A stretch of 59,256 nucleotides of DNA from Acidobacteriota bacterium. Its GTDB lineage: Bacteria; Acidobacteriota; Aminicenantia; Aminicenantales; Aminicenantaceae. This document shows positions 1 through 48,794 of the stretch, in pieces. The translations under genes and the position numbers were made by a program. The notes beneath the pieces were generated by a model that did not search any database, had not been told where the DNA came from, and saw nothing but the letters and a program-made list of their open reading frames with translations. The DNA is taken from NCBI GenBank assembly GCA_030669585.1, contig DAOVDI010000003.1:1-59256 (forward strand), given 5' to 3'. Every line of letters begins with the position of its first letter. The first letter of the stretch is position 1.

Positions 1-62
1 AATACGGCTTCACGAACAGCCCCTTGCAGATGCATCAACCTCGACTCGTAAATAGTCCAGGC
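1..62. repeat. Dispersed hairpin repeat, copy A (truncated by window start)
   Basis: 60/62 identical to 14751-14812; similarity continues to ~92 vs ~14842. Confidence 0.9.
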
Positions 63-110
63 ACTTACTTCAACAGGACATAACAAAAACACCAGAATCC
101 TATTTTTATT

Positions 111-249
111 ATCGGCATTTTTTCCCTTTCAGGCGGGCCGACTCTCGGTACATCTGCTGTGTTATGACGGGTTTGCGGTGGATAACCACAGCTTCACCCG
201 CCATGCCTTGCATCTGCACCAATCTCGACCCGTGAATAATCCAGGTTAG
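111..249. repeat. Dispersed hairpin repeat, copy B (full length)
   Basis: Colinear with 53848-53983 (ATCGGCATTTTTT start, AATCTCGACCCGTGAATAA end); 208-249 is 41/42 identical to 14917-14958. Confidence 0.85.
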
Positions 250-269
250 TAAATCTTTTGAGAATTAAT

Positions 270-298
270 TTGACAAATATTATTATAGAATATAAGGT
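270..298 (+). promoter_or_regulatory. Putative sigma-70 promoter of the FHA/kinase operon
   Basis: TTGACA-17 bp-TAAGGT; GGAGG RBS before ATG 331. Confidence 0.55.
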
Positions 299-330
299 GA
301 TATAACCATTTTACCCAAGGAGGGATTGGG

Positions 331-1239
331 ATGAACAAAAAAATCATAATATTTTCTTTTGCTGTTTTTTTTCTGGTCGGGTTATTTGCAACGGATGCCC
401 TTGCAGCCCAGGAATGGATTAGTGATATTCTCGCCAATCCATCCAGATACTGGAACAGAAATGTCACTGTAGTCGGTGATGTTCAGGCAGTTGTCGCCAA
501 CCCACCCGGTACAACGCGGGGAACATATTCACTCTTGGATGACAGCGGGGTTGTTCCTCTAACGATCCAGACAAAAGACTTGCCGCCAATTGGCAAGACC
601 TTTCAGGTGACCGGTGTTATTGTCCAGGATCCGAATAATGCCAATGCTCCACTCATGAAGGAGAGCAAGAGAACGTCACCCGGATTGGCTTCCAATATGA
701 AGATCCTTCTGATCGCCGGAGGCGCCCTGTTCTTGATCCTGCTGATCATTTTTATAATTCTTCTAACTAAGCCAAAGACTCCGAGGGCCCCTCAGGCTAC
801 GGTTAGTCCCGCTCCCAGGCCGGTTCCTCCTCCTCCAGCTCAAGGTCCTGCTCCTGATAAAACGACCAAGATTCCCACTACGAAAACAGTTCCTCCTCCT
901 CCAACTCCGGATAAGACACAGGTTTTTTTGAGCCTTGGTGTAGAAATTATAATTGAAAAAGGGCCTGACCAGGGGAAAGAATTTGCATTGCACAAACAGG
1001 TCACAATGTTCGGCCGGTCAGGAGCCAGGAAAAACGAGATCGAATTGAAGGACGATACCGTATCCAAGGAACAGTGCTCAGTTTATTATGACAGTGTGAA
1101 CAAGCAGTTCACCATAAAAAACGAGAGCCAGACCAATGTCACTCAGTTGAATGGCCAATTGATCACAGATCCAGTAACCCTTAATAACGGTGACTTGATC
1201 GAAATGGGCAAAACAGTACTCAAATTTAAGAAAGAGTAG
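331..1239 (+). CDS. Membrane-anchored FHA protein (signal peptide, OB-fold-like periplasmic domain, TM, Pro-rich linker, C-terminal FHA)
   Basis: FHA motifs FGR...VSKEQ...TNVTQLNG...LNNGDLIEMG; TM ILLIAGGALFLILLIIFIILL; ALA-A signal peptide. Confidence 0.85.
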   Translation: MNKKIIIFSFAVFFLVGLFATDALAAQEWISDILANPSRYWNRNVTVVGDVQAVVANPPGTTRGTYSLLDDSGVVPLTIQTKDLPPIGKTFQVTGVIVQDPNNANAPLMKESKRTSPGLASNMKILLIAGGALFLILLIIFIILLTKPKTPRAPQATVSPAPRPVPPPPAQGPAPDKTTKIPTTKTVPPPPTPDKTQVFLSLGVEIIIEKGPDQGKEFALHKQVTMFGRSGARKNEIELKDDTVSKEQCSVYYDSVNKQFTIKNESQTNVTQLNGQLITDPVTLNNGDLIEMGKTVLKFKKE

Positions 1240-1337
1240 TTAATTTCCTATTTTTTAGGTGAAGGAAACCTGTTTTTTCAGGTAGAGGTCTATATATAGA
1301 TCATGATCGGTTGTTTTGATCGGAAGCGACAAGAACC

Positions 1338-2243
1338 ATGAAAATTGATGTATTCGGCCTTACAGATGTTGGGAAAAAGAGAAAAATAAATGAAGATAAT
1401 TTTCAGTGCACCATATTATCCAAAAAAAATATGGATAAAGGCGTTCCGGCATCACTGCTGATCGTTGCAGATGGAATCGGAGGACATGCAGGAGGGGATG
1501 CTGCCAGTGCCATGGCTGTAAATATCCTCAATGAGCGTATCCGAAATCAATACGGAACCGGCAATGCGGTGAAAGAAAATTATCATGCGATCATAGAAGC
1601 CGCTATTCAGGAAGCCAACAACGGCATATTTCAGAGGGCTGTAGAGGATCAAAACCTTGTTGGAATGGGAACAACAGTAGTCACTGCGCTTATTATCGAT
1701 TCTTTAGCTTTGATCTCCAATGTAGGGGACAGCCGCGCCTATTTGATCCGTGATAAGAATATCCTTCAAATCACAGAGGATCATTCCTGGAAAGCCGAGC
1801 AGTTGAAGTTGAAACTGCTCTTAGAGAAAGAGATCAGCGAGTCTCCGTTCAGGCATATGATCACACGCTCATTGGGATTTGATTCCAATGTAAATGTTGA
1901 TATTTTCTCTGTTGAGCTTTTTAATGATGATTTTCTCCTGTTGTGCTCAGATGGCCTGTATGAATCTCTGTCTGATGCGTATATGATGAATCTGATCCTT
2001 AAAAACAAGAACCCTGAAAAAATTTGCCTGAAGTTGATCAAAATGGCCAATAAAAAAGGGGGTCATGACAATATCACAGCCGTAGTCGCCCATTTAACCG
2101 GGAAGGAGAAAGCCGGCGCAAAAAAACCATGTCTTTCCGATACTGTAAAACTTGAGAAAAAGCACCGTGGTATGGCCGAAAAACATAGATGGAAGGATAC
2201 AGTGGATCTTTCTCCCTCCGACACAATTAAATTGGACACCTGA
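1338..2243 (+). CDS. PP2C/Stp1-family Ser/Thr phosphatase with C-terminal tail
   Basis: TDVGKKR, NED, DGIGGH, GMGTT, NVGDSRAY, LCSDGL, GGHDNIT. Confidence 0.95.
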   Translation: MKIDVFGLTDVGKKRKINEDNFQCTILSKKNMDKGVPASLLIVADGIGGHAGGDAASAMAVNILNERIRNQYGTGNAVKENYHAIIEAAIQEANNGIFQRAVEDQNLVGMGTTVVTALIIDSLALISNVGDSRAYLIRDKNILQITEDHSWKAEQLKLKLLLEKEISESPFRHMITRSLGFDSNVNVDIFSVELFNDDFLLLCSDGLYESLSDAYMMNLILKNKNPEKICLKLIKMANKKGGHDNITAVVAHLTGKEKAGAKKPCLSDTVKLEKKHRGMAEKHRWKDTVDLSPSDTIKLDT

Positions 2244-2288
2244 TCGATTCCGGCCGGAGGATATAATAACTCCGCAATGGAGATAGTG

Positions 2289-3437
2289 ATGAAAGAAAAT
2301 AATATTTGCTTTCTAAAATGGTCTGTTCTTGTATTGATCCTGTTAAGCTTTTTTCCCGTGCAGGGATATTCCCAGGATAAGGCTGTTAATCTTCAGCGGA
2401 TCGATATCACTCGGCTCCCTGAGATACGTCTTTTTTTTACGGTTACCAATGAGAATGGGGACTCGATCCCAGGTCTCACGGAAAATGAGCTGGAAATAAC
2501 TGTTGATGGCGAGAAGCAGCAGATCTCCTCTTTGACATCGGCCTTTGAAGGCGGTGTTTATCTGGCAGTAGCCCTTCTTTTTGACAGAAGCGGCAGCATG
2601 AAGAATGCTATTGATAAGTCCAAAGATGCAGGCGCAGCCTTCCTTAAAAGGATGAGCGGGGAGGACCGGATCGCTGTTATATCCTTTGATCATAAAGTGG
2701 AAGTCAATTCAACTTTTACAAAAGACAGGGCTGCAAGCGAAGAGGCGATCGACAAGATAGTTTTAGGAGGAGATACCGCACTTTATGACGCGATTCATGA
2801 AGCCCTCGGACTTTTAAAGAATGAGGCGACACCACGGCAGGCTGTTGTTATCCTAAGTGATGGTAAAGATACAAAAAGCCGCATTCAGAGAGATGAAATG
2901 CTGGCCGGATTAAAAAACAAAAATGTTCCCATTTTCGCCATCAACTTAGATAGTCAAGGGGATGAAAACAATCTGAAGGATCTTGCACAACAAACCGGCG
3001 GAAATTATTTTGAAGCTGCTACTCCCAATGAGCTTCTTTATGTGTACCGGGTGATCGCTGATCAGCTTAATAACCAGTATGTCTTGGCCTTTCAATCCAC
3101 ATCCATACAGGATGAAAAGTTTCATGGACTGGAAGTAACCTTTAAAGACCCTGCCGGGCAGAGCGTTTCCGTTCAAAAGGAATATATCGCTACTAAAGGG
3201 CCGGGTGTCCGGCTGGAGACGGTTTCCGGGTTAATGAGACAGGTGGAAATGCGGAGTGTTATCCTGATCGTTGGGATCGGAACAATTTTTGGTTTGCTTT
3301 TAGGACTGGTGATCCTGCTTCTTCTCAAGCTTGCGCGTCCCAAGATCCGCGTCTTTTCTTTGTTGAGCCTGGCTTTGATCCTTTCCACAGTAATTTTTGG
3401 TGGGATTATTGGTGCGATATATCATTATCTGTTATGA
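2289..3437 (+). CDS. Exported vWA domain protein with two C-terminal TM helices
   Basis: MIDAS DRSGS, GDTALYDA, LSDG; signal peptide; GGAG RBS favours ATG 2289 over 2277. Confidence 0.9.
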   Translation: MKENNICFLKWSVLVLILLSFFPVQGYSQDKAVNLQRIDITRLPEIRLFFTVTNENGDSIPGLTENELEITVDGEKQQISSLTSAFEGGVYLAVALLFDRSGSMKNAIDKSKDAGAAFLKRMSGEDRIAVISFDHKVEVNSTFTKDRAASEEAIDKIVLGGDTALYDAIHEALGLLKNEATPRQAVVILSDGKDTKSRIQRDEMLAGLKNKNVPIFAINLDSQGDENNLKDLAQQTGGNYFEAATPNELLYVYRVIADQLNNQYVLAFQSTSIQDEKFHGLEVTFKDPAGQSVSVQKEYIATKGPGVRLETVSGLMRQVEMRSVILIVGIGTIFGLLLGLVILLLLKLARPKIRVFSLLSLALILSTVIFGGIIGAIYHYLL

Positions 3438-3457
3438 TTTAAATACACTGGATAAAA

Positions 3458-5797
3458 ATGGAAAAAATCGGGAAATATAACATTACCGGAGAGATCGGCC
3501 GTGGCGCTATGGGGATCGTTTACAAAGGAGAAGATCCAGTTATCGGTCGTCCTGTGGCCATTAAGACCATCCGTTTCGACACTCTTACCCAGGCGAGTGA
3601 GCAGGTAAATGCCCAGCGCCGGTTCATGAGGGAAGCACGTTCTGCAGGGAATCTTTCTCATCCGAACATTGTGACTATTTACGATGTAGGAGAGGATGAA
3701 GGGCTGACCTATATCGTAATGGAGTTTATTGAAGGTCAAAGCTTCGAGGAGCTGATTACTGCCGGCCAACGGTTTTCTGTGGATGAGATCATAGCCATAA
3801 TGGCCCAGATTGGGGAGGCTCTGGATTTTGCACATAGTAAGGGTATCGTCCACCGGGACATCAAACCGGGCAATATCCTGCTGGATCGGGCGGGCCGGCC
3901 GCATATTGTTGATTTCGGAATTGCGAGAATCTCATCATCCACTATGACTCAGACGAGTATGGTCATGGGGACACCCTTTTATATGTCGCCTGAACAGATT
4001 GCCGGGAGAAAGGTCGACAACAGGGCGGATATATTTTCATTGGGTGCCGTATTGTATGAGATGCTCACTCTTCAGAAAGCTTTTCCCGGTGACAACATCA
4101 CTACTGTGATCTATAAGATTGTCAATGAGCATCCTGTGCCTGCACGAAACTTTCAACAAGACCTGCCTGACGGATTGGACCATATCCTTCATAAGGCACT
4201 TGCAAAAGACCCTTCTCAACGCTACTCCACCTGTGCGGAGTTGGCACAGGATCTGCAGAATTATCCTGCCTATGCCGGAATTGTTCCTAATGAGCCTCCT
4301 TTGGTTACTGCACCCATCCCGGTGCATGAAAAAGTGCGAAAAACGGCCCACAGGACAGATGTGCCTTCTGTGGCTGATCCGGTGTTTTCCGGGCAAAAGG
4401 AAAGAAACCGAAAACCGCTGCTGTATGTGTTGGGAGCAATGATGATTGTGGTGATCTTTATTGTTGTTGCTGTGGTGATCTTTTCAAATAAAGACAAGAC
4501 GCCGGTTGTTTCAGGGGGCGGAGGGCCTCCTGTTCAGCCAATAATCCTTCCAATGGAAAAACCGCAGGAAAAACCGGATCCGGAAATAAGCTTATCTGAA
4601 CAGATAAAATCTTATGAAGAGCGAGCGGAAACGCTTTTTAAGAAAGGCAATAATGAAGGGGCCATCCTTCTACTGGAAAAGATTCTGGAACTGAATCCAA
4701 AACACAGCAAAGCCGAATTGAATCTTGGTCTGGTCCTGGCTGACCAGGGTCGTTTGGATGAAGCAAAAAAGAAATTTAAAAACTATTTGGTAGATAATAC
4801 AGAGGACCCAGCGCCATATTTTTATCTGGGCCTTCTTTCAGAGGAAGTGAATGATCCGGAAAGGGCACTGGCTTATCTGAAGATATATAGGGACATGGCG
4901 CCTGAGGGGCCGGATATCTATGAGGTTGAAAAAACGATCAGCAAACTGGAAAAAGAAGCACAGGCGAAACAGGATCAGGAACAAATTGCCGATAATCCGC
5001 CTGAAAAAAAAGTAAAGACAGTTCTGGATATAACAGAACCCAGGAAAAAACCAGAGGTCAAGCCTATTGCAAAACAAAAAGAGGAAGGTCCAAAACCCGA
5101 AGAACAGGAAGAAAAGACCTCAGAGGTCTCATCACTTCTGGATCAGGGGATTAGGGCTTTTGATGCAAAAAAATATGATCAGACCATTCTGCAGATGAGG
5201 GCGGTTTTAGAAATAGAACCTCAAAACAGTATTGCCAATTACTACATCAACAAAGCCAAAAGCGTAAAGGCGGAAAGACAGAAACAGCAGAGAATCAAGA
5301 ATCTTCTGCGGGGAGCAAAGTCAGACCTGGATAAAAATGATTTCAACCGGTGCATCCAGCGGACTCGGAATGTTCTCCAGCTTGATCCAAAAAATGCGGA
5401 AGCCTCTGATATCATGGTGCGGGCGAATGCTGCTAAACAGGAATATTCGGTCCGCTCCATCTTTGACGCTTACAGCAGGAGTTATGGGTCCGGGAATTTG
5501 GATGCTTTTTTTAAAAAATATTGTGTTCCCACAGTTTACAATAAGGAAAAATCCAAGGCCAGGATGCTTACTTCCTTTTACCGTAATTTCAGCAATCAGT
5601 TCAGCGATCCTGAAATTATTATGACTATTGATGGTAACGGTCCTGACAGCGCCATAGTGCAGTTCCAACAGGTCAGCAAAGCGATATCCAAGGCACAGGG
5701 CATAGAAGGAGAGATCGTTAATGGTTCATACAAATGGGAGCTCAAGGAGGCCGGGAAAAATTGGATGATCATTAAGATTACTTACTGGGGACGGTAA
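3458..5797 (+). CDS. Transmembrane Hanks-type Ser/Thr kinase with extracytoplasmic TPRs
   Basis: GRGAMG, VAIK, HRDIKPGN, DFG, TMTQT...GTPFYMSPE; TM near aa 322-343; TPR-like helices; C-terminal alpha/beta (NTF2-like?) domain. Confidence 0.95.
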   Translation: MEKIGKYNITGEIGRGAMGIVYKGEDPVIGRPVAIKTIRFDTLTQASEQVNAQRRFMREARSAGNLSHPNIVTIYDVGEDEGLTYIVMEFIEGQSFEELITAGQRFSVDEIIAIMAQIGEALDFAHSKGIVHRDIKPGNILLDRAGRPHIVDFGIARISSSTMTQTSMVMGTPFYMSPEQIAGRKVDNRADIFSLGAVLYEMLTLQKAFPGDNITTVIYKIVNEHPVPARNFQQDLPDGLDHILHKALAKDPSQRYSTCAELAQDLQNYPAYAGIVPNEPPLVTAPIPVHEKVRKTAHRTDVPSVADPVFSGQKERNRKPLLYVLGAMMIVVIFIVVAVVIFSNKDKTPVVSGGGGPPVQPIILPMEKPQEKPDPEISLSEQIKSYEERAETLFKKGNNEGAILLLEKILELNPKHSKAELNLGLVLADQGRLDEAKKKFKNYLVDNTEDPAPYFYLGLLSEEVNDPERALAYLKIYRDMAPEGPDIYEVEKTISKLEKEAQAKQDQEQIADNPPEKKVKTVLDITEPRKKPEVKPIAKQKEEGPKPEEQEEKTSEVSSLLDQGIRAFDAKKYDQTILQMRAVLEIEPQNSIANYYINKAKSVKAERQKQQRIKNLLRGAKSDLDKNDFNRCIQRTRNVLQLDPKNAEASDIMVRANAAKQEYSVRSIFDAYSRSYGSGNLDAFFKKYCVPTVYNKEKSKARMLTSFYRNFSNQFSDPEIIMTIDGNGPDSAIVQFQQVSKAISKAQGIEGEIVNGSYKWELKEAGKNWMIIKITYWGR

Positions 5798-5823
5798 AAA
5801 AAACAAGGAGGGATAGGAAGACA

Positions 5824-6924
5824 ATGAGTAAATTTAAGAGAAATCGGTTTTTTTTGTATCTAGCTTTGATGGCCACGTTTATATTTGTTTTGATTCCGAG
5901 TTTTGAAACTGGTCTGAATGGGTCTCAGGCAGCGTCATTAATGCGAATCTCACATACGCAGGTGAAGTATTTTATTCCCGGAGCCAGGATCCAGGTAAAA
6001 GCCCTGGTTTCTGATGAAGCAGGAGTTATGCTTGTACGCTGTTATTTTAAAGCCAAAGGCGAAACGAATTATGTTTTTGTAGAAATGCCTTTGATCGTTG
6101 GAAATGAGTATATTGGCGTTTTGCCCGCCCCGTCAGCAGCAACCAGTGCTATTGAATACATCCTGCTGTCTGTCAATCAGAACGGCCTGGTGGTTCGCAG
6201 CCAGGTATTTGAGGCCAAGCGCGACACAGGCCGGGAAAAGCCTGTATGGCAGGATGTCAATATGAGCGGCAGCGTTGCAGTGAATACAGAACTGGCCCGG
6301 GCGCCTCGCAGTCTGCCTGGTTTTGCCGATAACATTACAGCTGATGTCATTGAATCGGCCTTTCGGTTTGGTTATGTGGTCGAGGGGATCTATATGCTCA
6401 GCCAGATGGTCGGCGCTGCTCCGGTTGGTGCTGTCAGCGGCGGAACTGTTTCCGCCACCACTACAAAGGCCATTTCTCAGATAGAATCCACTCCCAAAAT
6501 ATCAAGAATTCCCGTGACCAGGCAGCCGGCAAAAACTCCTCCTAAGAAAAAGAAAGGGATCAGTCCTCTTATTATCGTTGGCGGAGCGGCCATAGTAACC
6601 GGAGGAGTGCTTCTAGCGACAGGAGTGCTTGGGACAAAGAAGTTGAATGTTCGGATCACGGTGTCGGATTATGGAGTTATTGATAATCAATTTGAAGTTT
6701 ATCTAGACGGTGAATTGCTAGGTACTACAACTCCCGGAGGGAGCGGTTCTTGGACGAGAGAATTAAAGGAAAAATCCACTCATACGCTTAAAATCACTAA
6801 TCTTACTGGCGGTACATATTGCACTTTTTCAATTTCCAATACGAATAAATCGGCAGAGGACTTTGTCTGGTTAGACTACGGCGTGTCCCATACTGTGTCA
6901 TTTATAGTCAACGAAGCGAATTGA
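5824..6924 (+). CDS. Unknown exported protein (beta-rich N domain, linker, KKKK + Gly-rich hydrophobic helix, beta-rich C domain)
   Basis: Long ORF in operon with GGAGG/AGGA RBS; signal-like N-terminus; LIIVGGAAIVTGGVLLATGVLG segment. Confidence 0.75.
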   Translation: MSKFKRNRFFLYLALMATFIFVLIPSFETGLNGSQAASLMRISHTQVKYFIPGARIQVKALVSDEAGVMLVRCYFKAKGETNYVFVEMPLIVGNEYIGVLPAPSAATSAIEYILLSVNQNGLVVRSQVFEAKRDTGREKPVWQDVNMSGSVAVNTELARAPRSLPGFADNITADVIESAFRFGYVVEGIYMLSQMVGAAPVGAVSGGTVSATTTKAISQIESTPKISRIPVTRQPAKTPPKKKKGISPLIIVGGAAIVTGGVLLATGVLGTKKLNVRITVSDYGVIDNQFEVYLDGELLGTTTPGGSGSWTRELKEKSTHTLKITNLTGGTYCTFSISNTNKSAEDFVWLDYGVSHTVSFIVNEAN

Positions 6925-6945
6925 AGTTATGTAACCGGAATTTAT

Positions 6946-8349
6946 TTGGTGCGATTTTTTCTCGTTATTTTGCTTGCTTGTGTTACTGCCGGTGTATTTC
7001 TCTGTCAGTCCGGAATTTCTGAATCCGCGGATGATATTCTCCATTTTACACTGGAGGAGGCGATCAACCGGGCTCTAACCGCCAATCGAAGTATTGCCAA
7101 TGCCCTTGATCAGGTTGCGCAGACCCGGTTTTCTCTGGTTTCTTCCAGAACTGATTTTGAGCTTAAGATAATCCCCGAGGTCTACCTGGACCTCGCCAAA
7201 GGGAGAAAAGATTATGGGGCAGCCCTTTCTATTGATAAAAAACTTTCAACAGGAACAGGGCTGTTGATCAGTCCTTCTATTCAGAGGATCGGTGAAACTT
7301 ATGAAACGGGCATGGATATTTTACTGACCCAGTCTCTTCTCCGCGGTTTCAGCACAGATTATAATCTTCGGGGGGTCAAACAATCCGAGTATTTGCTCCG
7401 TTCGTCTCAAAGAGATCTTTACTTGACGCAGGTTAGTGTTGTTCTGGCCGCGGTTTCGGCTGTCTACAATGTAATACGCCTGAGGGAGATCCTTCGCCTC
7501 CAGCAGTCCTCTCATGAAAGATTGCAGGGTTATACCGAAGCGGCTGGTGTAAAGCAGAAGATGGGATTGGCCACAGCCATTGATGTGTACAGAGCAAGGA
7601 TCAAACTCAATCAGGCGGAAAGCTTCCTGATCGCAAGCCGCGAAGCCTATCAGGATGCCCTGGACAATCTTCGGATCATACTGGCTGTTCCCCTTGAAAA
7701 GGCGATAGATGTTTCCGCTCCATTGACATACACGGTCATTCATGTGGAGGAAGAAAATGCCATTCTGGTTTCAATGAGTGAACGCGTGGAGATCATTCAG
7801 ATCAAAGATCTGATCGCTAATCTGGAACTTCAGGCCAGAACTGCAAAACACAATATTCTTCCTGACGTGGACCTGACCTTGAAATATTCCTCCAAAGGCT
7901 CAGACTCAGCCCTGAAAGAGAGTCTGAAAACCAATAAGGGCAGTGTAGAGCTGGGACTGGCGACTTCAGGGAATGTATCCCGCACCAGGGAAAAAGCGGC
8001 CTACGAAAGAAGCCGGATCGCGATTCACAGCGCATCCCGGCTGATGGACTTGAAATGTGATGAGATCAAAAGGGAAGTGAAGTTTTCCCTTCGCAACCTT
8101 TATCGAAACATGAAGAACATCGAGATCCAAAAGGAGCAGATCACTCAGGCGAAGGGAAAACTCGAACTGGCGAAGGTGAAATTTTCCAGGGGCATGGCAG
8201 GCAATTTTGACATGATAGAAGCAGAGACAGAGCTGCGCACAGCAGAAATAAGCCTTATATCGGCTGTCATTCAATATATTGAAAGACAATTCAGACTGAA
8301 GGCGGCCATGGGCATTTTGATAGACAAGCAGGGGAAGGTGTCTTCATGA
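6946..8349 (+). CDS. TolC-family outer membrane protein
   Basis: FTLEEAINRALTAN start, helical OEP repeats, terminal LKAAMG; adjacent to MFP. Confidence 0.85.
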   Translation: MVRFFLVILLACVTAGVFLCQSGISESADDILHFTLEEAINRALTANRSIANALDQVAQTRFSLVSSRTDFELKIIPEVYLDLAKGRKDYGAALSIDKKLSTGTGLLISPSIQRIGETYETGMDILLTQSLLRGFSTDYNLRGVKQSEYLLRSSQRDLYLTQVSVVLAAVSAVYNVIRLREILRLQQSSHERLQGYTEAAGVKQKMGLATAIDVYRARIKLNQAESFLIASREAYQDALDNLRIILAVPLEKAIDVSAPLTYTVIHVEEENAILVSMSERVEIIQIKDLIANLELQARTAKHNILPDVDLTLKYSSKGSDSALKESLKTNKGSVELGLATSGNVSRTREKAAYERSRIAIHSASRLMDLKCDEIKREVKFSLRNLYRNMKNIEIQKEQITQAKGKLELAKVKFSRGMAGNFDMIEAETELRTAEISLISAVIQYIERQFRLKAAMGILIDKQGKVSS

Positions 8350-9836
8350 CCAGGATCGATCGAAAAACAATCATTATCAGTGCGGTTGTGATTTTTGTTC
8401 TTGCTGCTGTTCTTTTGATCTTTTTAAACCGGAATAAAAGCCAGATACAGGCAATCCCTTTTGCAAGCGTCGGCTTCAGGAATTTTGAGGTCAATGTTTT
8501 TGCTTTAGGCGAGCTGGATTCGGAAAAGTCCATTACTGTCAGTTCCGGGCTCAAAGAAGAAGGGAAGATCGTTTTTCTGATCGAGGATGGGACCAGTGTT
8601 GACCTTGGAGATGTTCTGGTTAAAATGGACCCGGCTCCTTTTGAAGAAAAGGTTTCACAGCTGACATCCAAAGTCAATGAATGGAACGCCATTATTGCTG
8701 CTCAGCAGCAGACCCTGGAGTGGGAGAAGATTCAGGCAGATCAGGAATTACAGACTTCAAAATACGACTTTCAGGTAGCAGAACTGGAACTGCAAAAGCT
8801 GGAAAAAGGGGATGGGCCTTTGGAACTGTCCAGACTTGAAGGCGCCATGCTGGAGGAAAAAAAGAAATATGAGGAATTGAAGGGATACATCGATGATCTG
8901 GAGGACTTGGTAAAAAAGGGGTATAGTAATCCTCTTGAGATTGCGCAGGCAAAGGAGCGGGTGGATAAGCTTGAAAAAAGTTATGAGGTCGCCAGGCAGC
9001 AGTATGAGAGCTATAGAGATTTTATTCTACCTACTTTGCTCAAGAGCGCAAAAGTCAAAGTTGAAAAAACAAAGATGGTTATTGAACAAACCAGAAAAGG
9101 GGCAGGATTCAAGATAGGAAAAGCCATTGCCGAACTTAATAAGAGCAAGCAGGAATACAAAGCACTGCAGCAGCTTCTTGCAAATGCACAGATAGAACTG
9201 GAGAAGACAACTGTCCGGGCGCCTCAAAGAGGGCTTGTTGTTCTTAAAGAGTCCTACCGTGAAGGGGAGATGCGAAAACCACGCGTGGGGGACATGGTGA
9301 TCCGGAATCAGCCTATCCTGTTTTTACCCGACATCTCTTCCATGATGGCAAAGATCCTGATCCGGGAGGTCGATCTTTATAAGATCGATATCGGAAAACC
9401 TGTTAAGATCCAGGTGGATGCCTATCCCGAGCTTTCATTCGAGGGTGAAGTTGTTTTTATCGGTATTTTGGCCGAGCGGCGCCGTGAAGTCAGAGGGGGT
9501 GAAAAATATTTCAAGGTGAATGTTACCATCCATGAGCCTGACAGCAGGCTCAGACCGGGGATGACGGCCAGAGTGAGGATTTTGTCAAAGGCAAAAAAGG
9601 AAAAAACCATAGTTGTGCCCATCCATGCTGTGTTTCAGGAAGAAGAAATGCGATTCTGCTATATCGCACGTCCGGAAGGATTTGAAATACGAGAGGTGCT
9701 GCTTGGAGCGCAGAACGATACCTTTGTCCAGATTTTGGATGGATTGAATAAGGGAGAAAAGATCTGTTTGAGCCGCCCTCCAAAAAATAGGGTAAAAACA
9801 ACAAAATATTTAGAGAAACCTCAAAAAATGAATTGA
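8346..9836 (+). CDS. Efflux periplasmic adaptor (MFP, MacA/HlyD-like)
   Basis: N-terminal anchor, lipoyl halves (G..VDLGDVL; TTVRAPQRG), long coiled coil, LRPGMTA. Confidence 0.9.
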   Translation: MTRIDRKTIIISAVVIFVLAAVLLIFLNRNKSQIQAIPFASVGFRNFEVNVFALGELDSEKSITVSSGLKEEGKIVFLIEDGTSVDLGDVLVKMDPAPFEEKVSQLTSKVNEWNAIIAAQQQTLEWEKIQADQELQTSKYDFQVAELELQKLEKGDGPLELSRLEGAMLEEKKKYEELKGYIDDLEDLVKKGYSNPLEIAQAKERVDKLEKSYEVARQQYESYRDFILPTLLKSAKVKVEKTKMVIEQTRKGAGFKIGKAIAELNKSKQEYKALQQLLANAQIELEKTTVRAPQRGLVVLKESYREGEMRKPRVGDMVIRNQPILFLPDISSMMAKILIREVDLYKIDIGKPVKIQVDAYPELSFEGEVVFIGILAERRREVRGGEKYFKVNVTIHEPDSRLRPGMTARVRILSKAKKEKTIVVPIHAVFQEEEMRFCYIARPEGFEIREVLLGAQNDTFVQILDGLNKGEKICLSRPPKNRVKTTKYLEKPQKMN

Positions 9837-9845
9837 TACGAAATA

Positions 9846-11099
9846 ATGTTGAAGAGCAAAGATATACCCATAAATTGGATAAGGCATTTTCAGATGGCCT
9901 ACCATTCACTGCAGGAACACAAGCTGCGTTCCGCCCTCAGTATGCTCGGTGTTATTTTTGGGATCATTTCCGTTATCACGATGTTATCTGTTGGAGAAGG
10001 AGCTAAAAGAAAAACCCTGGAACAGATCGAGCAGTTAGGGATCCAGAATATTATACTTAAAACTATGAAGTTGACAGAGGCCCAGCAGCTCCATGCCAGT
10101 GAGCGCCTTTCTCATGGATTGAGTGAACGCGATGTTTTGCGGATCCGGGAAAGCTTTCCTTTTGTTGAGCTTGTAGCGCCTCTTAAAGAAGTGAGAGCAT
10201 CGGTACTGAGCGTCGGTCAGGAGTTTTATCCGGACATCCTTGCCATATCAGCCGAGTATCAGCTTGTCCATGACCTGGCTGTTTCTGAAGGCCGGTTTAT
10301 CAGTGACCTGGATTCCAGCCGGAGGAATTTTGTCTGTGTTATTGGAGATGAGATTGCCGGGATCTTGGGGGCCGTGGGGCGTGTGAGTGAGGTCATTCGC
10401 ATTGAAGAGGAAATATTCAAGATCGTCGGTATATTAAAACCAAGAAAAACCGCTTCACAGGGAAGTTCTGTTCTTGGGGTCAGAGATATCAACCGCGCAA
10501 TTTTTATTCCTCTCCGGACTGATACATTTTTTCTTGATCGGCCTGAACCGCTTCCATTTGATGAGATTGTGGTCAAGGTTAGGGATAAAGACCAGATCTT
10601 TTCTGCAGCCAATGGTATACAGGAGCTTATGGAAAGTTCCCATCAAGGAGCCAGGGATTACCAGATGATCATTCCACAGGAATTGATCAACAAACAGAAA
10701 CAGACACAGGCTAATTTCAACATTTTTCTGGGTTCCATTGCGATCATTTCCCTGATAGTAGGAGGGATCGGGATAATGAACATCATGTTGGCCAATGTCT
10801 CTGAACGGACGCATGAGATTGGGATTCGTAGAGCACTTGGCGCAACCCAGAATCACATCAAGTGGCAGTTTTTATCCGAGTCCATCCTTGTCTCGGTCAG
10901 TGGGGGTGTTATTGGATTATTCCTGGGACTGATGACGGTCTTGGCCATTTCTTTTTTTGGGGAATGGCGTGCAGTGGTCAATGCAGGGATACTGATTTTG
11001 GCCTTGATTATGGCATTTGCTGTGGGCCTGTTTTCCGGGCTTTATCCGGCAGTCAAAGCGTCAAAAATGGACCCGGTCGAAGCCCTCCGCTATGAATAA
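9846..11099 (+). CDS. MacB/FtsX-type ABC transporter permease
   Basis: KLRSALSMLGVIFG, VGGIGIMNIMLANVSERTHEIGIRRALGA, DPVEALRYE. Confidence 0.95.
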   Translation: MLKSKDIPINWIRHFQMAYHSLQEHKLRSALSMLGVIFGIISVITMLSVGEGAKRKTLEQIEQLGIQNIILKTMKLTEAQQLHASERLSHGLSERDVLRIRESFPFVELVAPLKEVRASVLSVGQEFYPDILAISAEYQLVHDLAVSEGRFISDLDSSRRNFVCVIGDEIAGILGAVGRVSEVIRIEEEIFKIVGILKPRKTASQGSSVLGVRDINRAIFIPLRTDTFFLDRPEPLPFDEIVVKVRDKDQIFSAANGIQELMESSHQGARDYQMIIPQELINKQKQTQANFNIFLGSIAIISLIVGGIGIMNIMLANVSERTHEIGIRRALGATQNHIKWQFLSESILVSVSGGVIGLFLGLMTVLAISFFGEWRAVVNAGILILALIMAFAVGLFSGLYPAVKASKMDPVEALRYE

Positions 11100-11109
11100 T
11101 TAAGGGCTG

Positions 11110-12273
11110 TTATCTTACTACTTCAGATGCAAATACTATATCTACACCATACTGTTTCTGCATCTTGAATAGATCCTTACTGAGAATTTGTAAAGTCATA
11201 TTTGAAGGATGGCAGATGCCGACCGCATGCCCGTTTTTCTGTGCCAGGCGAAAAAGTTCCTTCAATTGCCCTTTTATATAGCTTTTTTCCAGTTCTCCGT
11301 CCAGGAAGACATGCCTTCTTGCTGTGGGGATGTCCAGGCTTCGGGCCATTTTATAAGCTATGGAATCGCTTGTTGTCATACTGTCGATAAAATAGAGGTT
11401 TTTCTCTTTCAGCCGTTCGAGAAAGATGCGCATCGTGGTCCAATCCTCGGTTGCCTTTGATCCCATATGATTGTTGACTCCACGTGCATATGGAATGTCG
11501 TCCAGATCTTTATCGAGGATACTGCAGATCTCCTGTTCAGACATTCCGGATAGGATGATTCCATCCATTTTGTTAGCTTTGTTCAAATTTTTAGATTCAA
11601 GAGGAAGATGAAGGATGATTTCCAACCCGGATCTATGAGCGATTTCCGCTGTTTCTTGGGAAAGAGGACTGAAAGGAATGATGGCCACTGTTAATGGCAA
11701 ATTGATGCGGCAGATCGTGTTGATGGCCTGGAGATTGTAGCCCATGTCGTCCACAATTATCACCACGCGGTTTTTTTTCTTTGTTTGCTTTAATACTTTC
11801 CCGGGCTTGATTTCTGACAATCTATAGGAAAAAAGAAGAGAAAGTTTTTCGCCGGTTTTCCCCTCGACCTTCCACAGATGATACTGTTTCCCCGCGTCCT
11901 TGTATTTTTCTTTTTCAAGAACAACCGCCTTATTTATCCTGAAATTGTTTTCAAGAGAGGATTTGATCCGGGAATAGCTTTCTTCAGGAAGATTGATTAT
12001 CAGGTGATGGTTCTGCTCGCTATCCCAGAATTGACGAATGGATTCCGGTGTTATGGAGAGAGCGGAAAGATGATTCTGCACGATATCGCCCATAGTTTTG
12101 CTTCGAGGCAGGGATTTTGGCTTAGAGCGTTGAGAGAAAAGGAATGTGTTTTTCCCTTGAGTCCAGTTGATATAGTCCAATCCAATAATACTGAGAAGCG
12201 CCATTATTGAAAAAATGATGAATAACGTCCGCGGAAAATGCGAACTAGGAGGTTTTTCCCGGAATTGACGCAT
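11110..12273 (-). CDS. Divergent polysaccharide deacetylase (YibQ family)
   Basis: IIVDDMG, LHLPLE, GVNNHMGS, FIDSMT, VFLD, GICHP. Confidence 0.9.
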   Translation of the reverse strand: MRQFREKPPSSHFPRTLFIIFSIMALLSIIGLDYINWTQGKNTFLFSQRSKPKSLPRSKTMGDIVQNHLSALSITPESIRQFWDSEQNHHLIINLPEESYSRIKSSLENNFRINKAVVLEKEKYKDAGKQYHLWKVEGKTGEKLSLLFSYRLSEIKPGKVLKQTKKKNRVVIIVDDMGYNLQAINTICRINLPLTVAIIPFSPLSQETAEIAHRSGLEIILHLPLESKNLNKANKMDGIILSGMSEQEICSILDKDLDDIPYARGVNNHMGSKATEDWTTMRIFLERLKEKNLYFIDSMTTSDSIAYKMARSLDIPTARRHVFLDGELEKSYIKGQLKELFRLAQKNGHAVGICHPSNMTLQILSKDLFKMQKQYGVDIVFASEVVR

Positions 12274-14702: not shown

Positions 14703-14812
14703 AGCCGATATTATCCCATCTGCTGTGTTGCCGTCCGTTCGCAGTATATAAATACGGCTTCACGAACAGCCTCTTGCAGATGCATCAATCTCGACTCGTA
14801 AATAGTCCAGGC
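14703..14812. repeat. Dispersed hairpin repeat copy
   Basis: CATCTGC...GCAGATG stem, GTAT-ATAA-ATAC inner hairpin; matches 1-62 and 53848-53983. Confidence 0.9.
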
Positions 14813-14916
14813 ATTCAATTCAACAGGACACAATAAAAACACTATGACAATCAATTAATAAATTGTTAGAAAGAAAAACACTAGAACCCTAGACCCCTTG
14901 AATCCTACCATCTCTT

Positions 14917-14958
14917 TTGCATCTGCACCAATCTCGACTCGTGAATAATCCAGGTTAG
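14917..14958. repeat. Partial (3' end) copy of dispersed repeat
   Basis: 41/42 identity with 208-249; a shorter remnant lies at 14665-14687. Confidence 0.85.
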
Positions 14959-26072: not shown

Positions 26073-27311
26073 ATGAATGTGCAGAAAAAGAAATCAGGGA
26101 AGAAAAAAGCATTTTTAATTATCGGGGTTATCGCTGTTATCGCCGTAATCGTTATTTTCAGTATGCAGGCGAATCGTGAAAAAACAGTCGCGGTCAATGT
26201 GGAAAAGGTGAAGAGTGAGAATCTCACGTCTATTATTTCTGCATCCGGCGAGGTGAAGCCCAAAAAAAACATCAATATAAGCGCCCATATTCCAGGCAGG
26301 ATCGTGAAGATCGGCGTAGTTGAGGGGCAGAGGGTCCATGCCGGGGATTTTCTTCTAAAGCTGGATTCCACTCAGTATGAGGCAAATGCTGACAGAGACA
26401 GGGCAACTATCCGTATATATATGGCGGAAATAATTAAAGCTGAAGCCCGTTTGAAAAAAGATGAGAAGTATTTTGAGCGGCAGAAAAAACTATATGATGA
26501 AGATCTGATCTCAGGCGAGCAGCTTGAGGCCGCCAAAGCAAATTTCGATATTTCTAAAGCCCAGAATGAGGCCATCCTCTACCAGAAAATACAGGCCGAA
26601 GCGTCGCTTCAGAGTTCGCTGGATAACCTTCAAAAAACAGTCTACAATTCGCCTATCGATGGTATTCTAACAAGCCTCCGTGTGGAAGAAGGAGAGATTG
26701 CTCTTGTGGGTACGATGAATAACCCGGGTACTGTTCTCATGACCATTGCTGACCTTTCTGTTATGGAAGTGGAGGTTGAGGTCGATGAGACTGATGTGGT
26801 GTCCGTTGAGATCGGGCAGTCCGCAGAAGTGCGTGTAGATGCATTTCCGGATAGAGTCATAAAAGGAATAGTCACGGAGATCGGGAGTTCCGCTCTGCAA
26901 AAATTAACCGCTTCTCAGGAATCAAAAGATTTTAAAGTAGTGATTACTCTGGAGGATACTCCTGAAAATCTGAAACCTGGTCTTTCTGCTTCAGCCGACA
27001 TCATCACTTCAGAAAAAGAAAACGTTCTGGCAGTGCCGATCTCGGCGCTTGTTCTGAAGGAGATAAATGATAAGGAAAACAAAGGCAAGGAAGACAAGCA
27101 AAAGCAGGAAGAAGGTGTTTATCTTGTCAACGAGCAGGGAAGGGCTGAATTTGCCCCGGTTAATAAAGGGATCATGGGCGAGTTGAAGATTGAGATCGTA
27201 TCCGGCCTTGAGGAAGGGCAGGATATTGTCATTGGCCCATACAGCGCCCTTCGTTCTCTTCGTGAGGGCATGCTGCTTAAAATTGAAAAGAAAAAAGATA
27301 AAGAGACTTAA
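26073..27311 (+). CDS. Efflux periplasmic adaptor (MacA/YknX-like)
   Basis: N-terminal anchor, lipoyl halves, VDETDV, LKPGLSA. Confidence 0.9.
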
Positions 27312-28021
27312 TGATGGCCGTAGCAAATAACGCTCTCATCTCTGTTCACGACTTATGGAAGGTCTATCAGCTGGGCGGACAAGAGGTCAAGGCTCTTTGT
27401 GCTGTAACCTTTGATATTCATCGCAATGAACTCGTTGCAATCATGGGTCCCTCTGGTTCGGGCAAATCGACCTTGATGAATCTTATCGGCTGTCTCGATA
27501 CACCGACCAAAGGTGAATATCTGTTGAACAATAAAAAAGTCTGCGACCTGAGTGAAAATGAACTGGCCCACATCCGGAACCGTGAGATCGGTTTTGTATT
27601 TCAGGTTTTTAACCTGCTCCCGCGGGCAACGGCATTTCACAATGTAGAACTTCCCTTGATCTACAAGGGAGCAAGCAGGAAGGAAAGAGAGACCAAGACA
27701 CGAAAGGCCTTAGAGATGGTTGAGATAGAGAATAGGGCGGACCACCGCCCTTCCGAACTATCAGGTGGGGAAAGACAGAGAGTGGCCATTGCCCGGGCTC
27801 TTGTCAATGAGCCGTCGATCCTTTTGGCTGATGAGCCGACAGGGAACCTGGATACAAAAACCGGGTTTGAGATCATGAAACTCTTCCACAAGATCCATGC
27901 TGATGGAAATACGATCATTATGGTCACTCACGATCCTGAGATCGCAGTACACGCCCATAGGACTATTTATCTAAGGGATGGACGGATTGAGAAAGAAGTC
28001 AGAAAGGAGCATATAGAATGA
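27311..28021 (+). CDS. ABC transporter ATPase (LolD/MacB/YknY-type)
   Basis: [29 protein letters not shown]-loop. Confidence 0.95.
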
Positions 28022-28725
28022 ATATACTCAATCGCTTCTTGGGGATATTTTTAAGCCCTCAACAAACAGTCAAAGCCGTATCTGGGAAACCGGTCTGGAT
28101 CGAAGCTCTCATCATCCTTTTTATCTTCACTGCCTTATTCTCCTATTTTACCATGCCTTATCAGCAGCAGGACACCTATCAGATGATGAAAGACAATGTG
28201 AAACTGAGAGAGCGTATGGGGGAAGACCGCTTTGAGGATTATCTGGAAGGGATTAAGACCCCATCAACAGCAGGAACACTGGTTCGATCTTTTCTGTTGG
28301 GTCCTTTAGCTTTGTTCATTGGTTTCCTTTTTCAATGTTTGATTTTTTTAGGAATGGGCAGGTTGTCATCGACCGAAGGAAGATATAAGCAGATCTTTGC
28401 TGTTTTCCTTCATGCACGTTTTATAGATATTGGGATCGGGGGGGCTTTGCGGCTTTTTCTGGTTCTGTCTAAAAAATCCTTTTTTCAGACATCCACAAGC
28501 CTGGCAGTGTTCTTTCCCAAGCTTGAAGTGACATCCTCGGCCTATATCGTGTTAAGCCAATTTGATTTCTTTCAGATATGGGCTTATGGGATCATAGGTC
28601 TTGGCCTTTCCTATGTTTTTAAAGTCGAGCCGAAAAAGGGCCTGATCACTGCCTATGTCCTGTGGTTTATCAAAACACTTTTATATATAGGCTTTGGATT
28701 TCTCAGTCGAATTTATATGATTTAA
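28018..28725 (+). CDS. Yip1-family membrane protein (YknW-like)
   Basis: GIFLSP start motif, multiple TMs, FDFFQIW; follows MFP and ATPase. Confidence 0.75.
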
Positions 28726-46394: not shown

Positions 46395-46618
46395 GTTTCA
46401 ACTCCTACTGTGAATTCCAAATTTGTAAGCAAGAAATATACACTCAACAAGGGGAAAATTCAATAGAAGAGAGGGAATCGTGCCAAGTTTTCTCCGTTGC
46501 CTTATTACAGCTTTGTCCCTCCTACATCAATTATGGTGGGCAAATCTTTTATTGACTGGATATGTTTCTTCACTGTAATATTTTCACAAGAGGAGGTAAG
46601 AGAGCGAAAATACAACAA

Positions 46619-48772: not shown

Positions 48773-48794
48773 AATTACATATAGATAGAAAAAC

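Follow-up and report, generated by a model that had tools for sequence, protein, structure and literature searches.

The window analysed here is an entire contig of 59,256 nucleotides (DAOVDI010000003.1) from an uncultured sediment bacterium of the Acidobacteriota. Eight ORFs on the plus strand span 331-11099, separated in order by gaps of 98, 33, 20, 26 and 21 bp, a 4-bp overlap and a gap of 9 bp. Our ORF calls recovered the coordinates of a sequence-only reading that had described eight co-oriented genes with gaps under 100 bp (the largest is 98 bp), and Pfam and NCBIfam searches upheld its domain assignments for the eight proteins. The features are as follows.

258-286, plus strand: sigma-70-like match TTGAGA-17-TATTAT (10 of 12 positions), a candidate promoter between a dispersed repeat and the first gene.
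331-1239, plus strand: membrane FHA protein, 302 aa (Pfam FHA, 2.8e-12, residues 226-293; AF2 model).
1338-2243, plus strand: cytoplasmic PP2C Ser/Thr phosphatase, Stp1/IreP-like, 301 aa (NF033484, 240.7 bits, cut-off 230; Pfam PP2C).
2277-3437, plus strand: exported vWA protein, 386 aa (Pfam VWA_2, VWA and VWA_3; TIGR03436, 129.9 bits, cut-off 81).
3458-5797, plus strand: TM Hanks-type Ser/Thr kinase, 779 aa (Pfam Pkinase, 1.3e-57, plus TPR families).
5824-6924, plus strand: signature protein of an unnamed family, 366 aa (AF2 model; no Pfam, NCBIfam or PADLOC family).
6946-8349, plus strand: TolC-like outer-membrane factor (OMP), 467 aa, TTG start (Pfam OEP, 8.1e-24, in two stretches; TIGR01844 below cut-off).
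8346-9836, plus strand: MFP (periplasmic adaptor) with a long coiled-coil hairpin, 496 aa (TIGR01730 RND_mfp, 118.3 bits, cut-off 94.9; Pfam HlyD_D23 and HlyD_3).
9846-11099, plus strand: MacB-type (type VII ABC) permease lacking a nucleotide-binding domain, 417 aa (Pfam MacB_PCD, 1.5e-30; FtsX, 4.8e-21).

Downstream of the permease gene, the gene at 11110-12273 lies on the opposite strand. As the window is the whole contig, upstream DNA is limited to 330 bp, and the first ~250 bp of the contig are the dispersed repeat; in the sister genome (locus L004), two genes on the minus strand sit immediately upstream of the FHA gene. A single promoter had been proposed for the operon. There is indeed one consensus match, at 258-286, but the region holds fewer promoter-like sites than shuffled sequence (10 vs 16.0 ± 3.7), so this match is not evidence of function. 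No Rfam family matched within 1-12000. We also considered a defence system and rejected it: the PADLOC matches of the kinase (PD-T4-6 and mad6) reflect kinase domains in general, and none of the other operon proteins fits such a system.

Independent contigs from other studies span several junctions of the operon. Those of sequencing runs X3 (4986-6520) and X5 (5721-6094) bridge the junction between the kinase and signature genes, and X3 contigs also bridge the OMP/MFP (7789-9461) and MFP/permease (9680-10505) junctions. Another run, X18, is labelled RNA-Seq and is probably DNA. In the sister genome (G001), the gene order of the fused operon is identical and all eight genes are intact, with dN/dS of 0.14-0.41 against the window; the eight genes are under purifying selection. 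In a genome of another genus (G019), a vWA-kinase pair lies at a contig end and the export genes lie on a different contig (C62). Judged from these gene orders, two genera of the family retain the fused operon.

The first four genes encode the parts of a phospho-signalling system. In the AF2 model, the FHA protein consists of an N-terminal helix (residues 3-23), a TM helix (121-146), a disordered Pro-rich linker and the FHA domain (204-301), predicting a signal peptide, a periplasmic barrel, a membrane span and a cytoplasmic FHA domain; the helix at 121-146 agrees with the earlier view that this FHA protein is itself a membrane protein. Residues 44-115 are modelled as a five-strand beta-barrel (pLDDT about 90). 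An OB-like domain had been proposed here, and the barrel does have OB-like topology, but Foldseek gave no match for it, since FHA matches took up the list. All 66 clusters of this protein family carry FHA. The NCBIfam FhaB/FipA-like model NF049868 aligns to residues 132-298 at 47 bits, far under its cut-off of 125, so the protein is not an FhaB/FipA equivalog. The phosphatase translation contains, by eye, DG.GGH, SDG and DN, which we take to be the PP2C motifs, and the kinase VAIK, HRDIKPGN and DFG, presumably the kinase motifs; the catalytic motifs of both predicted enzymes thus appear to be present. By eye, the vWA protein has a putative signal peptide and a hydrophobic C-terminus that probably forms a two-helix membrane hairpin, and its vWA domain is predicted to be periplasmic. 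Its MIDAS, taken by us as the pattern DxSxS...T...D, is intact as had been noted (DRSGS, GGDT and SDGKDT). The kinase has its catalytic domain at 7-260, a TM segment near 320-343, periplasmic TPRs at about 384-492 and a C-terminal domain for which an Atlas match (score 0.91) gives a lead to the NTF2-like Cds6_C fold.

The signature protein has an N-terminal signal or anchor, an Ig-like beta-sandwich (residues 40-175) that carries the R-C-Y-F and E..RF motifs invariant in the family alignment, a Thr/Lys/Pro-rich linker, a Gly/Ala-rich hydrophobic segment at about 245-270 and a second beta-sandwich (273-362). The family comprises 1265 representative clusters at E<=1e-3. The hydrophobic segment is kept in 125 of 129 motif-bearing members, with flanking charges (mean K+R) of 0.78 upstream and 0.83 downstream. 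A PDB sequence profile search returned nothing at E<=1, the Atlas search gave no match of at least 0.9, and a fold search with the AF2 model found generic Ig-like matches only. The signature protein looks like cargo on three sequence features: the family occurs as tandem paralogues of 2-3 copies at six loci (L010, L011, L012, L015, L020 and L050), its C-terminal domains differ among members, and its gene has the highest dN of the eight (0.0935). A complex prediction of two permease copies with residues 38-200 of the signature protein, made without control runs, scored 0.00, which counts neither for nor against contact.

The remaining genes encode a pump. The permease is of the four-TM MacB_PCD plus FtsX type, and the MacB model NF007826 matches it over the permease half only (positions 258-646). 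MacAB-TolC, DevBCA-HgdD and YknWXYZ share with the operon a MacB_PCD plus FtsX permease, an MFP and a TolC-like OMP. DevBCA-HgdD and YknWXYZ have a split-ATPase gene layout, and related loci match it, with a separate ATPase of 220-279 aa encoded between MFP and permease. Unlike MacAB-TolC-type exporters, the window has a long MFP (496 aa) and no ATPase in cis, and the cassette always includes an Ig-like membrane or secreted protein.

Together with the signature protein, the OMP-MFP-ATPase-permease set forms a cassette of Desulfobacterota and Nitrospirota that is rare in the host's phylum. The signature protein is found in 3 of 301 genomes of the class and, at E<=1e-10, in 3 of 401 of the phylum, the other two of which match in the Ig-like core only; this rarity is consistent with recent acquisition. 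Four weak class-level matches (E 4.6e-4 to 2.7e-7) were rejected as homologues, as they align over nothing but the linker and hydrophobic stretch. Our cassette counts come from 69 non-redundant related loci, of which 31 have at least 6 kb of upstream DNA and 28 at least 5.5 kb of downstream DNA. Of the 48 loci whose downstream DNA is informative, 25 have the OMP gene directly after the signature gene, and OMP, MFP and MacB occur together in 18 of the 28. Among the 10 loci without the full trio, four (L022, L027, L034 and L060) keep pump genes: three are truncated by the end of the locus, and in L034 a single called ORF covers MFP to MacB. The other six (L006, L023, L036, L041, L059 and L067) have the signature protein without pump genes. 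Synteny across phyla indicates that the signature protein is tied to the pump, and the export cassette is horizontally spread.

The cassette is also recurrently linked to kinases. A Hanks kinase gene is present in 15 of the 31 loci with sufficient upstream DNA and absent from 16, FHA genes are present in 11, and the kinase gene lies immediately before the signature gene in 8 of the 69. The kinases carry different sensor domains: DUF4384 at three loci (L015, L007 and L017), PDZ at L008 and TPRs in the window. The presence of a Hanks kinase and FHA proteins, of another kind, beside the cassette in other phyla means that the linkage recurs. Synteny of the exporter with the kinase module therefore holds elsewhere for kinase and FHA but does not extend to PP2C, linked outside the genus in only 3 of 31 loci, or to vWA, linked in 1 of 31, that one being the sister genome. 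Other neighbours of related cassettes are caspase-like (18/31), CsgG-like (20/31) and GNA1162-like (16/31) genes; the window's own genome yielded no caspase or GNA1162-like gene and a single CsgG-like gene, located on another contig (C47). A position beside a T6SS or Tad locus had been named earlier as a setting that, if general, would count against the proposed system. This holds in part: such a setting is seen for some Desulfobacterota cassettes, in which a T2SSF gene (4 loci), T2SSE plus T2SSF (a fifth) or a VipA/VipB-like sheath fusion (3 loci) adjoins, but not for other loci or the window's own genome.

The signalling quartet has a different distribution. The FHA protein family is present in 32 of 301 genomes of the class; the FHA-PP2C-vWA-kinase order is identical in four of them (G004, G277, G287 and G152), and in 12 of 20 fetched loci the FHA and kinase genes belong to the same run of genes. 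All four families form one co-oriented cluster that is kept as a unit in relatives. An exporter lay beside the quartet in none of 19 informative fetched neighbourhoods, which speaks against a conserved co-occurrence of all eight genes, the check proposed earlier. The quartet is an independent, stand-alone module of the class, and as it stands alone in most genomes that have it, its usual output cannot be this pump. By gene content, the operon joins two modules that are each conserved on their own, the quartet (module A) and the export cassette (module B).

At related loci, the cassette includes a gene that the operon lacks, and this absence had gone unremarked in the sequence-only reading. In each of the 19 other loci with both an MFP and a permease gene, the cassette ATPase gene sits between the two; G019 has it as well. 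In the window the MFP-permease gap is only 9 bp, leaving no room for an ATPase gene there, and with none in the operon the pump is incomplete in cis. The deletion is clean, with both flanking frames whole, and the same ATPase-less junction is found in the sister genome and on the X3 contig (9680-10505). No cassette-ATPase orthologue was found in either assembly of the genus; the best match is 53% identical and falls outside the cassette clade. These comparisons indicate that the cassette ATPase gene is lost in this genus. The best match in the window's genome to cassette ATPases is the following.

27311-28021, plus strand: candidate trans-acting ABC ATPase, part of an MFP-ATPase-Yip1 trio.

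This protein is 52% identical to the L017 ATPase and 53% to the G019 ATPase. The trio is conserved in relatives, with no FtsX-type permease next to it. We rejected this gene as a relocated cassette ATPase, since it lies outside the cassette clade and is a core gene of the order (26/26 genomes) with its own MFP and Yip1 partners. As an ATPase that might be shared with the pump, it is a candidate only.

Several described systems share parts with the operon. In the Pseudomonas aeruginosa H1-T6SS pathway (TagQRST, PpkA, PppA and Fha1), the vWA domain is a periplasmic part of PpkA, and TagS belongs to the MacB/LolC type. The operon likewise has a TM Hanks kinase, a PP2C and an FHA protein, and Pfam supports the parallel that had been drawn between the two parts lists for kinase, PP2C, FHA, vWA and ABC-type permease. 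Unlike that pathway, it has a separate vWA protein, a membrane-anchored FHA protein with its own periplasmic domain, a TolC-like OMP, an MFP and the Ig-like signature protein, and lacks a TagT-like ATPase. According to the accessible text, kinase-dependent T6SS activation requires the ATPase activity of TagS/TagT, an ABC-like complex, so that an ABC-like inner-membrane component within an envelope-spanning signalling unit would be common to both (PMC13713981). No match to the T6SS markers TssC (PF05943), Hcp (PF05638) or TssF (PF05947) was found in the window's own assembly, extending the earlier statement that the window has no T6SS; at 87.75% completeness of the assembly, this does not prove absence.

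FHA proteins and kinases are combined in other ways elsewhere. Mycobacterial FhaB/FipA (Rv0019c) is encoded with a PP2C and Hanks kinases (PstP, PknA and PknB), and in M. tuberculosis the kinase PknF controls Rv1747, an ABC exporter with an FHA domain. The window's FHA protein resembles FhaB/FipA in its TM helix, Pro-rich linker and C-terminal FHA domain, and differs in its extra periplasmic beta-barrel and in an operon without cell-division genes. Systems of vWA, Ser-Thr kinase, FHA and PP2C proteins include Sulfolobus ArnA/ArnB. The operon shares these four families with Deinococcus radiodurans DRA0331-DRA0334, likewise a single operon and described in the accessible text as one phospho-signalling unit (10.64898/2026.01.23.701218), and an actinobacterial kinase-PP2C-vWA gene trio appears in the accessible text of Kaur et al. 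2020 (PMC7159879). Unlike the Deinococcus unit, the window has another gene order, an export cassette behind the quartet, a predicted periplasmic vWA domain and a membrane-spanning FHA protein, and this topology makes a cytoplasmic FHA-vWA contact unlikely. A literature search, supplements being outside its scope, found the gene combination in no paper, in keeping with the earlier remark that this is not a described system.

How, then, might the two modules work together? Tentatively, and at somewhat below an even chance, we favour a reading in which phosphorylation gates a type VII ABC pump that is powered in trans and exports or displays the Ig-like signature protein. Module A would be a membrane-embedded Ser/Thr phospho-switch typical of the class, composed of FHA, PP2C, vWA and TPR/NTF2-like kinase proteins, and module B a type VII ABC tripartite export cassette of Ig-like protein, TolC-like OMP, long-hairpin MFP and MacB-type permease. 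The three periplasmic domains would detect an envelope or periplasmic cue, the kinase would autophosphorylate on Thr, the membrane-tethered FHA domain would bind the phospho-Thr, and PP2C would reset the switch. The Ig-like protein, Sec-exported and tethered to the inner membrane through its Gly/Ala-rich hydrophobic segment, may be the cargo; the phospho-signal acting on the cassette would gate its passing to the permease, which would drive it out, or to display, through the MFP and TolC-like channel by mechanotransmission. As the cassette's own ATPase gene is deleted in the genus, ATP hydrolysis would have to be supplied by an ATPase encoded elsewhere. The tight gene order, the synteny across phyla, the cargo-like features of the signature protein, the linkage to kinases with unrelated sensor domains, the retention in two genera, the intact genes under purifying selection and the precedents of TagS/TagT and Rv1747 suggest this reading; the quartet standing alone elsewhere, the 16/31 cassettes without a kinase, the 6/28 signature loci without a pump, the lack of recurrent PP2C or vWA linkage and the missing ATPase gene speak against it. 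The earlier proposal of a stand-alone envelope-sensing circuit joined to an exporter fares similarly: the kinase and FHA linkage makes it plausible, but the quartet is independent and the pump has no ATPase gene of its own. We consider a functional link between Ser/Thr signalling and the exporter plausible from gene content, and there are hints that protein phosphorylation controls a MacB-type exporter of this kind.

The modules may instead be unrelated neighbours, the cassette having landed behind a resident signalling operon and being merely co-transcribed, with the kinase output elsewhere and the pump exporting a substrate that has no tie to phosphorylation (a lipid, a peptide or a toxic compound, for example). 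We consider this unlikely, if a serious contender: the solitary quartets of relatives, the kinase-free cassettes and the rarity of the cassette in class and phylum fit it well, but it leaves aside the independent linkage of the cassette to Hanks kinases with three different sensor domains, the fused arrangement kept in two genera and the 20-26 bp gaps flanking the module junction. Signalling could also run in the reverse direction, with permease, MFP, OMP and Ig-like protein acting, like TagST, as a sensor or energiser that informs the kinase of envelope state, and the true output lying elsewhere, through the FHA protein. The shared parts list agrees with this, as does the mechanotransmitter action of type VII ABC systems in signalling; TagST, in the accessible account, is required upstream of PpkA (PMC13713981). 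Against it, neither a T6SS nor another obvious output machine lies in the operon or turned up in the genome, sensing needs no full OMP-MFP channel, and the ATPase required for TagST function is missing from the operon; we regard it as improbable.

Least probable in our view, and distinctly so, is a decaying remnant, a pump non-functional since ATPase loss whose genes are still undegraded. The absence of the cassette ATPase from both assemblies of the genus, set beside its presence in all 19 other loci with MFP and permease, would be expected of such a remnant, but two diverged genomes (dS 0.11-0.31) both keep all four cassette genes intact, at dN/dS of 0.15-0.30, the permease (0.148) is among the most constrained of the eight genes, and the deletion is clean.

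A broader reading, speculative and on balance doubtful, is that the Ig-like protein and the OMP-MFP-ATPase-MacB pump lie at the heart of an envelope machine that is gated by phosphorylation, has so far gone undescribed and belongs to anaerobic sediment bacteria; the window would hold a minimal, re-wired version of it. In its full Desulfobacterota form, the machine would comprise three FHA proteins, a DUF4384 kinase, a caspase-like protease and CsgG-like and GNA1162-like lipoproteins, and would adjoin a type-IV-filament ATPase and platform, or sheath-like genes, and giant adhesin-like proteins. Such a machine would pull out a membrane-held protein and then display or release it on the surface; the window version would have been re-wired independently, recruiting another kinase set and borrowing an ATPase.

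The unnamed signature family marks a conserved export cassette in at least three phyla. If the link between the modules is functional, the operon would offer a clear example from nature of Hanks-kinase/FHA signalling connected to a MacB-type tripartite pump, and a compact eight-gene system for the role of type VII ABC pumps in signalling, a question left open for TagST in the accessible text of PMC13713981. A pump that stays under purifying selection after losing its own ATPase also raises the idea that ATPases may be shared between type VII ABC systems.

Between 331 and 11099 lie eight ORFs, all on the + strand, separated in order by 98, 33, 20, 26 and 21 bp, a 4-bp overlap and 9 bp, with a convergent gene beginning 10 bp past the last of them. 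Using Pfam and NCBIfam for domain calls, we find the following products:

Protein 1 (+): 302 aa, FHA protein
Protein 2 (+): PP2C phosphatase, scoring over the Stp1/IreP cut-off
Protein 3 (+): vWA protein, scoring over the TIGR03436 cut-off
Protein 4 (+): 779 aa, Hanks kinase with TPRs
Protein 5 (+): 366 aa, without an assigned family
Protein 6 (+): OEP/TolC-like protein (OMP)
Protein 7 (+): MFP, scoring over the TIGR01730 cut-off
Protein 8 (+): permease with MacB_PCD and FtsX domains

Eight co-oriented genes with these domains had been proposed in a sequence-only reading, and we confirm this observation because ORF calls, Pfam and NCBIfam, an AF2 model and the translations all agree with it. 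The single promoter of that reading is a candidate only, a lone consensus match at 258-286. Modelled with AF2, protein 1 has a signal helix, then a five-strand beta-barrel at 44-115 predicted with confidence, a TM helix at 121-146, a Pro-rich linker that is disordered, and an FHA domain whose fold matched the GarA and OdhI structures. The barrel resembles an OB fold in topology only. In the translated vWA protein we see a signal peptide, the pattern DxSxS...T...D and, at the C-terminus, two hydrophobic helices; the kinase and PP2C retain their catalytic motifs.

The source assembly (G000; 2.48 Mb, 191 contigs, 87.75% complete) holds the window as one whole contig, and named relatives of the window proteins are labelled Aminicenantes or Acidobacteriota. 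A dispersed repeat, built from two or more modules (roughly 1-92 and 100-250), occupies 1-250 and 14751-14958; copies at 89-99% identity occur on more than 40 contigs of the same genome, several at contig ends, and its word depth in metagenome contigs is 10-40x that of the flanks. This repeat is probably behind assembly breaks, including the start of the window contig. At 46562-52451 (+) are adjacent large ORFs, one of 736 aa without a Pfam family and one of 1218 aa with a Laminin_G_3 match only.

For protein 5, searches of Pfam, NCBIfam, PADLOC and PDB sequences were negative, and the Atlas returned nothing at 0.9 or more. Its AF2 model has beta-sandwiches at 40-175 and 273-362 with a low-confidence stretch between them, and Foldseek returned generic Ig-like folds only. 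A profile search shows the family to be real and large, with 1265 representative clusters retrieved at E≤1e-3 and, at E≤1e-30, 292. In the alignment, the R-C-Y-F strand is invariant; further hallmarks are an E..RF motif and, past a low-complexity linker, a Gly/Ala-rich hydrophobic segment, which 125 of the 129 members bearing the motif contain. In protein 5 the linker is Thr-rich at about residues 205-245. Some profile matches are to giant proteins in which the Ig-like core is repeated 14-20 times and which Pfam labels Big_7 or PKD; these are matches of fold and not of family. Strong matches occur in 3 of the 301 class genomes sampled (four others are linker-only); for the phylum the count is 3 of 401 genomes, the two others matching in the Ig-like core only. 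Record 12 of sequencing run X18, a cold-seep contig, matches the Ig-like gene from 5797 on and has different sequence upstream (junction 5797-5805), so a relative may have another gene instead of the kinase.

The FHA-PP2C-vWA-kinase quartet has a different distribution. The beta-barrel/TM/FHA family of protein 1 comprises 66 clusters, mostly from Aminicenantes or Acidobacteriota, and is present in 32/301 sampled class genomes. We collected 20 neighbourhoods from 20 FHA-bearing genomes, one of them mis-centred and showing none of the genes. FHA and kinase genes lie within one run in 12 and a vWA gene is present in 10, with the full order FHA-PP2C-vWA-kinase in G004, G277, G287 and G152. In the fetched neighbourhoods, neither protein 5 nor a pump stands beside the kinase, except in G019, a genome of another genus in the same family, where one contig ends inside the kinase gene and another starts inside protein 5 and holds the pump. 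Because the quartet stands without a pump in relatives and protein 5 is rare in class and phylum, we read the operon as a fusion of two modules, common to two genera of one family. As judged from these comparisons of sequence, a class-typical signalling module is fused to a cassette (protein 5 and its pump) that is rare within the lineage but common outside it.

We scanned collections of genomes and metagenomes with the family alignment and obtained 76 loci; 69 of them are non-redundant and contain a called family ORF. Desulfobacterota families, Nitrospirota and others appear in the record titles. The loci were annotated by phmmer with the window proteins, by profiles from Pfam-checked neighbours and by two Pfam runs. 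Of 48 loci whose downstream sequence is informative, 25 have the OMP gene immediately 3' of the family gene. Where at least 5.5 kb lies downstream (28 loci), OMP, MFP and permease genes are complete in 18, only some pump genes are present in L022, L027, L034 and L060, and none are present in L006, L023, L036, L041, L059 and L067. In pump-less loci, the gene after the family gene often encodes a large LRR, PKD, Lcl_C, NHL or MopE-repeat protein; six loci have 2-3 family genes in tandem. The metagenome contig L041 (9893-11815 and 17372-19084), from which pump genes are absent, encodes a 640-aa fusion of a family member with NHL repeats and, about 5.5 kb from it, a kinase that in its kinase domain and C-terminal region comes nearer to the window kinase than any other found (1e-101 and 2e-13).

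In the 31 loci whose upstream DNA reaches at least 6 kb, we find a Hanks kinase in 15, FHA in 11, PP2C in 3 and vWA in 1, the sole case being the sister genome G001; caspase-like, CsgG-like and GNA1162-like genes occur in 18, 20 and 16. The sequence-only reading had looked to co-occurrence of all eight genes: the order is shared with the sister genome and a Hanks kinase recurs beside cassettes, but the quartet is separate in relatives. A recurrent Desulfobacterota order runs T2SSF, three FHA(-TPR) proteins, kinase-DUF4384, caspase-like, CsgG-like and GNA1162-like, then the family gene(s), OMP, MFP, ATPase and permease. Examples of this large cluster and of a variant are:

L015 1-17106: large Desulfobacterota cluster
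L007 14-16260: large Desulfobacterota cluster
L044, and L012 with L113: large Desulfobacterota cluster
L060 4480-6054, L022 999-2570 and L063 4492-6015: single-chain fusions of VipA-like with VipB-like sheath domains, 507-524 aa

The large cluster includes T2SSE with MshEN, single-domain T2SSF, a caspase-like protein with Glucodextran_B and the four-gene pump. In one such genome, genes for a T2SSE ATPase and five MopE-repeat proteins are further upstream; in L113 the MopE-repeat proteins, five in tandem and one of them carrying a C-type lectin domain, precede the cluster. In the variant loci, which also encode DUF2169 proteins, the sheath fusion genes adjoin DUF2169 and FHA genes and a set of kinase, Ig-like family, Lcl_C-PKD and caspase-like genes. 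Caspase and GNA1162-like genes were not found in the window's own 87.75% complete assembly; it has one CsgG-like gene, on contig C47, and its T2SSF matches are two two-domain genes on other contigs.

A 220-279-aa ABC_tran ATPase is encoded between MFP and permease in 19/19 related loci with both genes, and the G019 cassette also has an ATPase gene. In the window, 9 bp separate MFP and permease. As the sister genome and an independent contig from sequencing run X3 of a different study (covering 9680-10505, with 7 differences) share this junction, loss of the cassette ATPase is genuine rather than an assembly artefact. The ATPases of cassettes group in one clade (support 88/95) that includes the G019 protein and 0/8 ATPases of the window's own genome. 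In both G000 and G001, the best match to the G019 ATPase has 53% identity, compared with 59-65% for the other pump proteins. This match, 27311-28021, lies in an MFP-ATPase-Yip1 trio (26073-28725) that resembles YknWXY minus YknZ. The trio ATPase is kept at 65-77% identity in 26/26 relatives, and synteny extends to MFP and ATPase in 14/14 loci and Yip1 in 12; an FtsX/MacB-type permease is beside the trio in none of the 14 loci examined. The product of 27311-28021 is a candidate shared ATPase, nothing more. With it, the ABC ATPases of the genome that come closest number six, the other five being on contigs C188, C29, C131, C4 and C191.

The Pseudomonas T6SS phosphorylation pathway, named as a parallel in the sequence-only reading, serves well as an analogy. 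Membership fails on the missing ATPase and on T6SS genes; beyond the locus, TssC, Hcp and TssF were not found in the 87.75% complete assembly. The role of TagST is still undefined, although its ATPase activity is required (PMC13713981); operons of vWA, kinase, FHA and PP2C genes have been published for Deinococcus (preprint 10.64898/2026.01.23.701218), and a kinase-PP2C-vWA trio is noted (PMC7159879). The window pump belongs to the MacB superfamily and has a layout of the split-ATPase type. A reversed, TagST-like sensor role is improbable. A full-text search in a collection with few subscription journals found no paper describing the cassette, its signature protein or the kinase link; the conserved cassette behind the operon is undescribed.

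That the cassette is a decaying remnant is more doubtful still, as all eight genes are intact in both G000 and G001 and dN/dS in this one pairwise comparison (dS 0.09-0.31) is 0.14-0.41 (FHA 0.31, PP2C 0.38, vWA 0.14, kinase 0.41, protein 5 0.30, OMP 0.23, MFP 0.24, permease 0.15). Chance co-location of quartet and cassette is a stronger contender, if an unlikely one. Against a functional link, the weightiest points are that the quartet is normally pump-free and that no kinase is seen with half of the cassettes. What supports it most is the pairing of cassettes with Hanks kinases of three unrelated sensor domains (DUF4384, PDZ and TPR), a recurrence suggesting that the pairing has been selected repeatedly. 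The proposed envelope circuit tied to a MacAB-TolC-like machine is partly supported. Collectively, we tentatively favour a model in which the quartet would act as a membrane phospho-switch gating the fate of the Ig-like protein, which a type VII ABC tripartite pump, powered by an ATPase in trans, would export or display.
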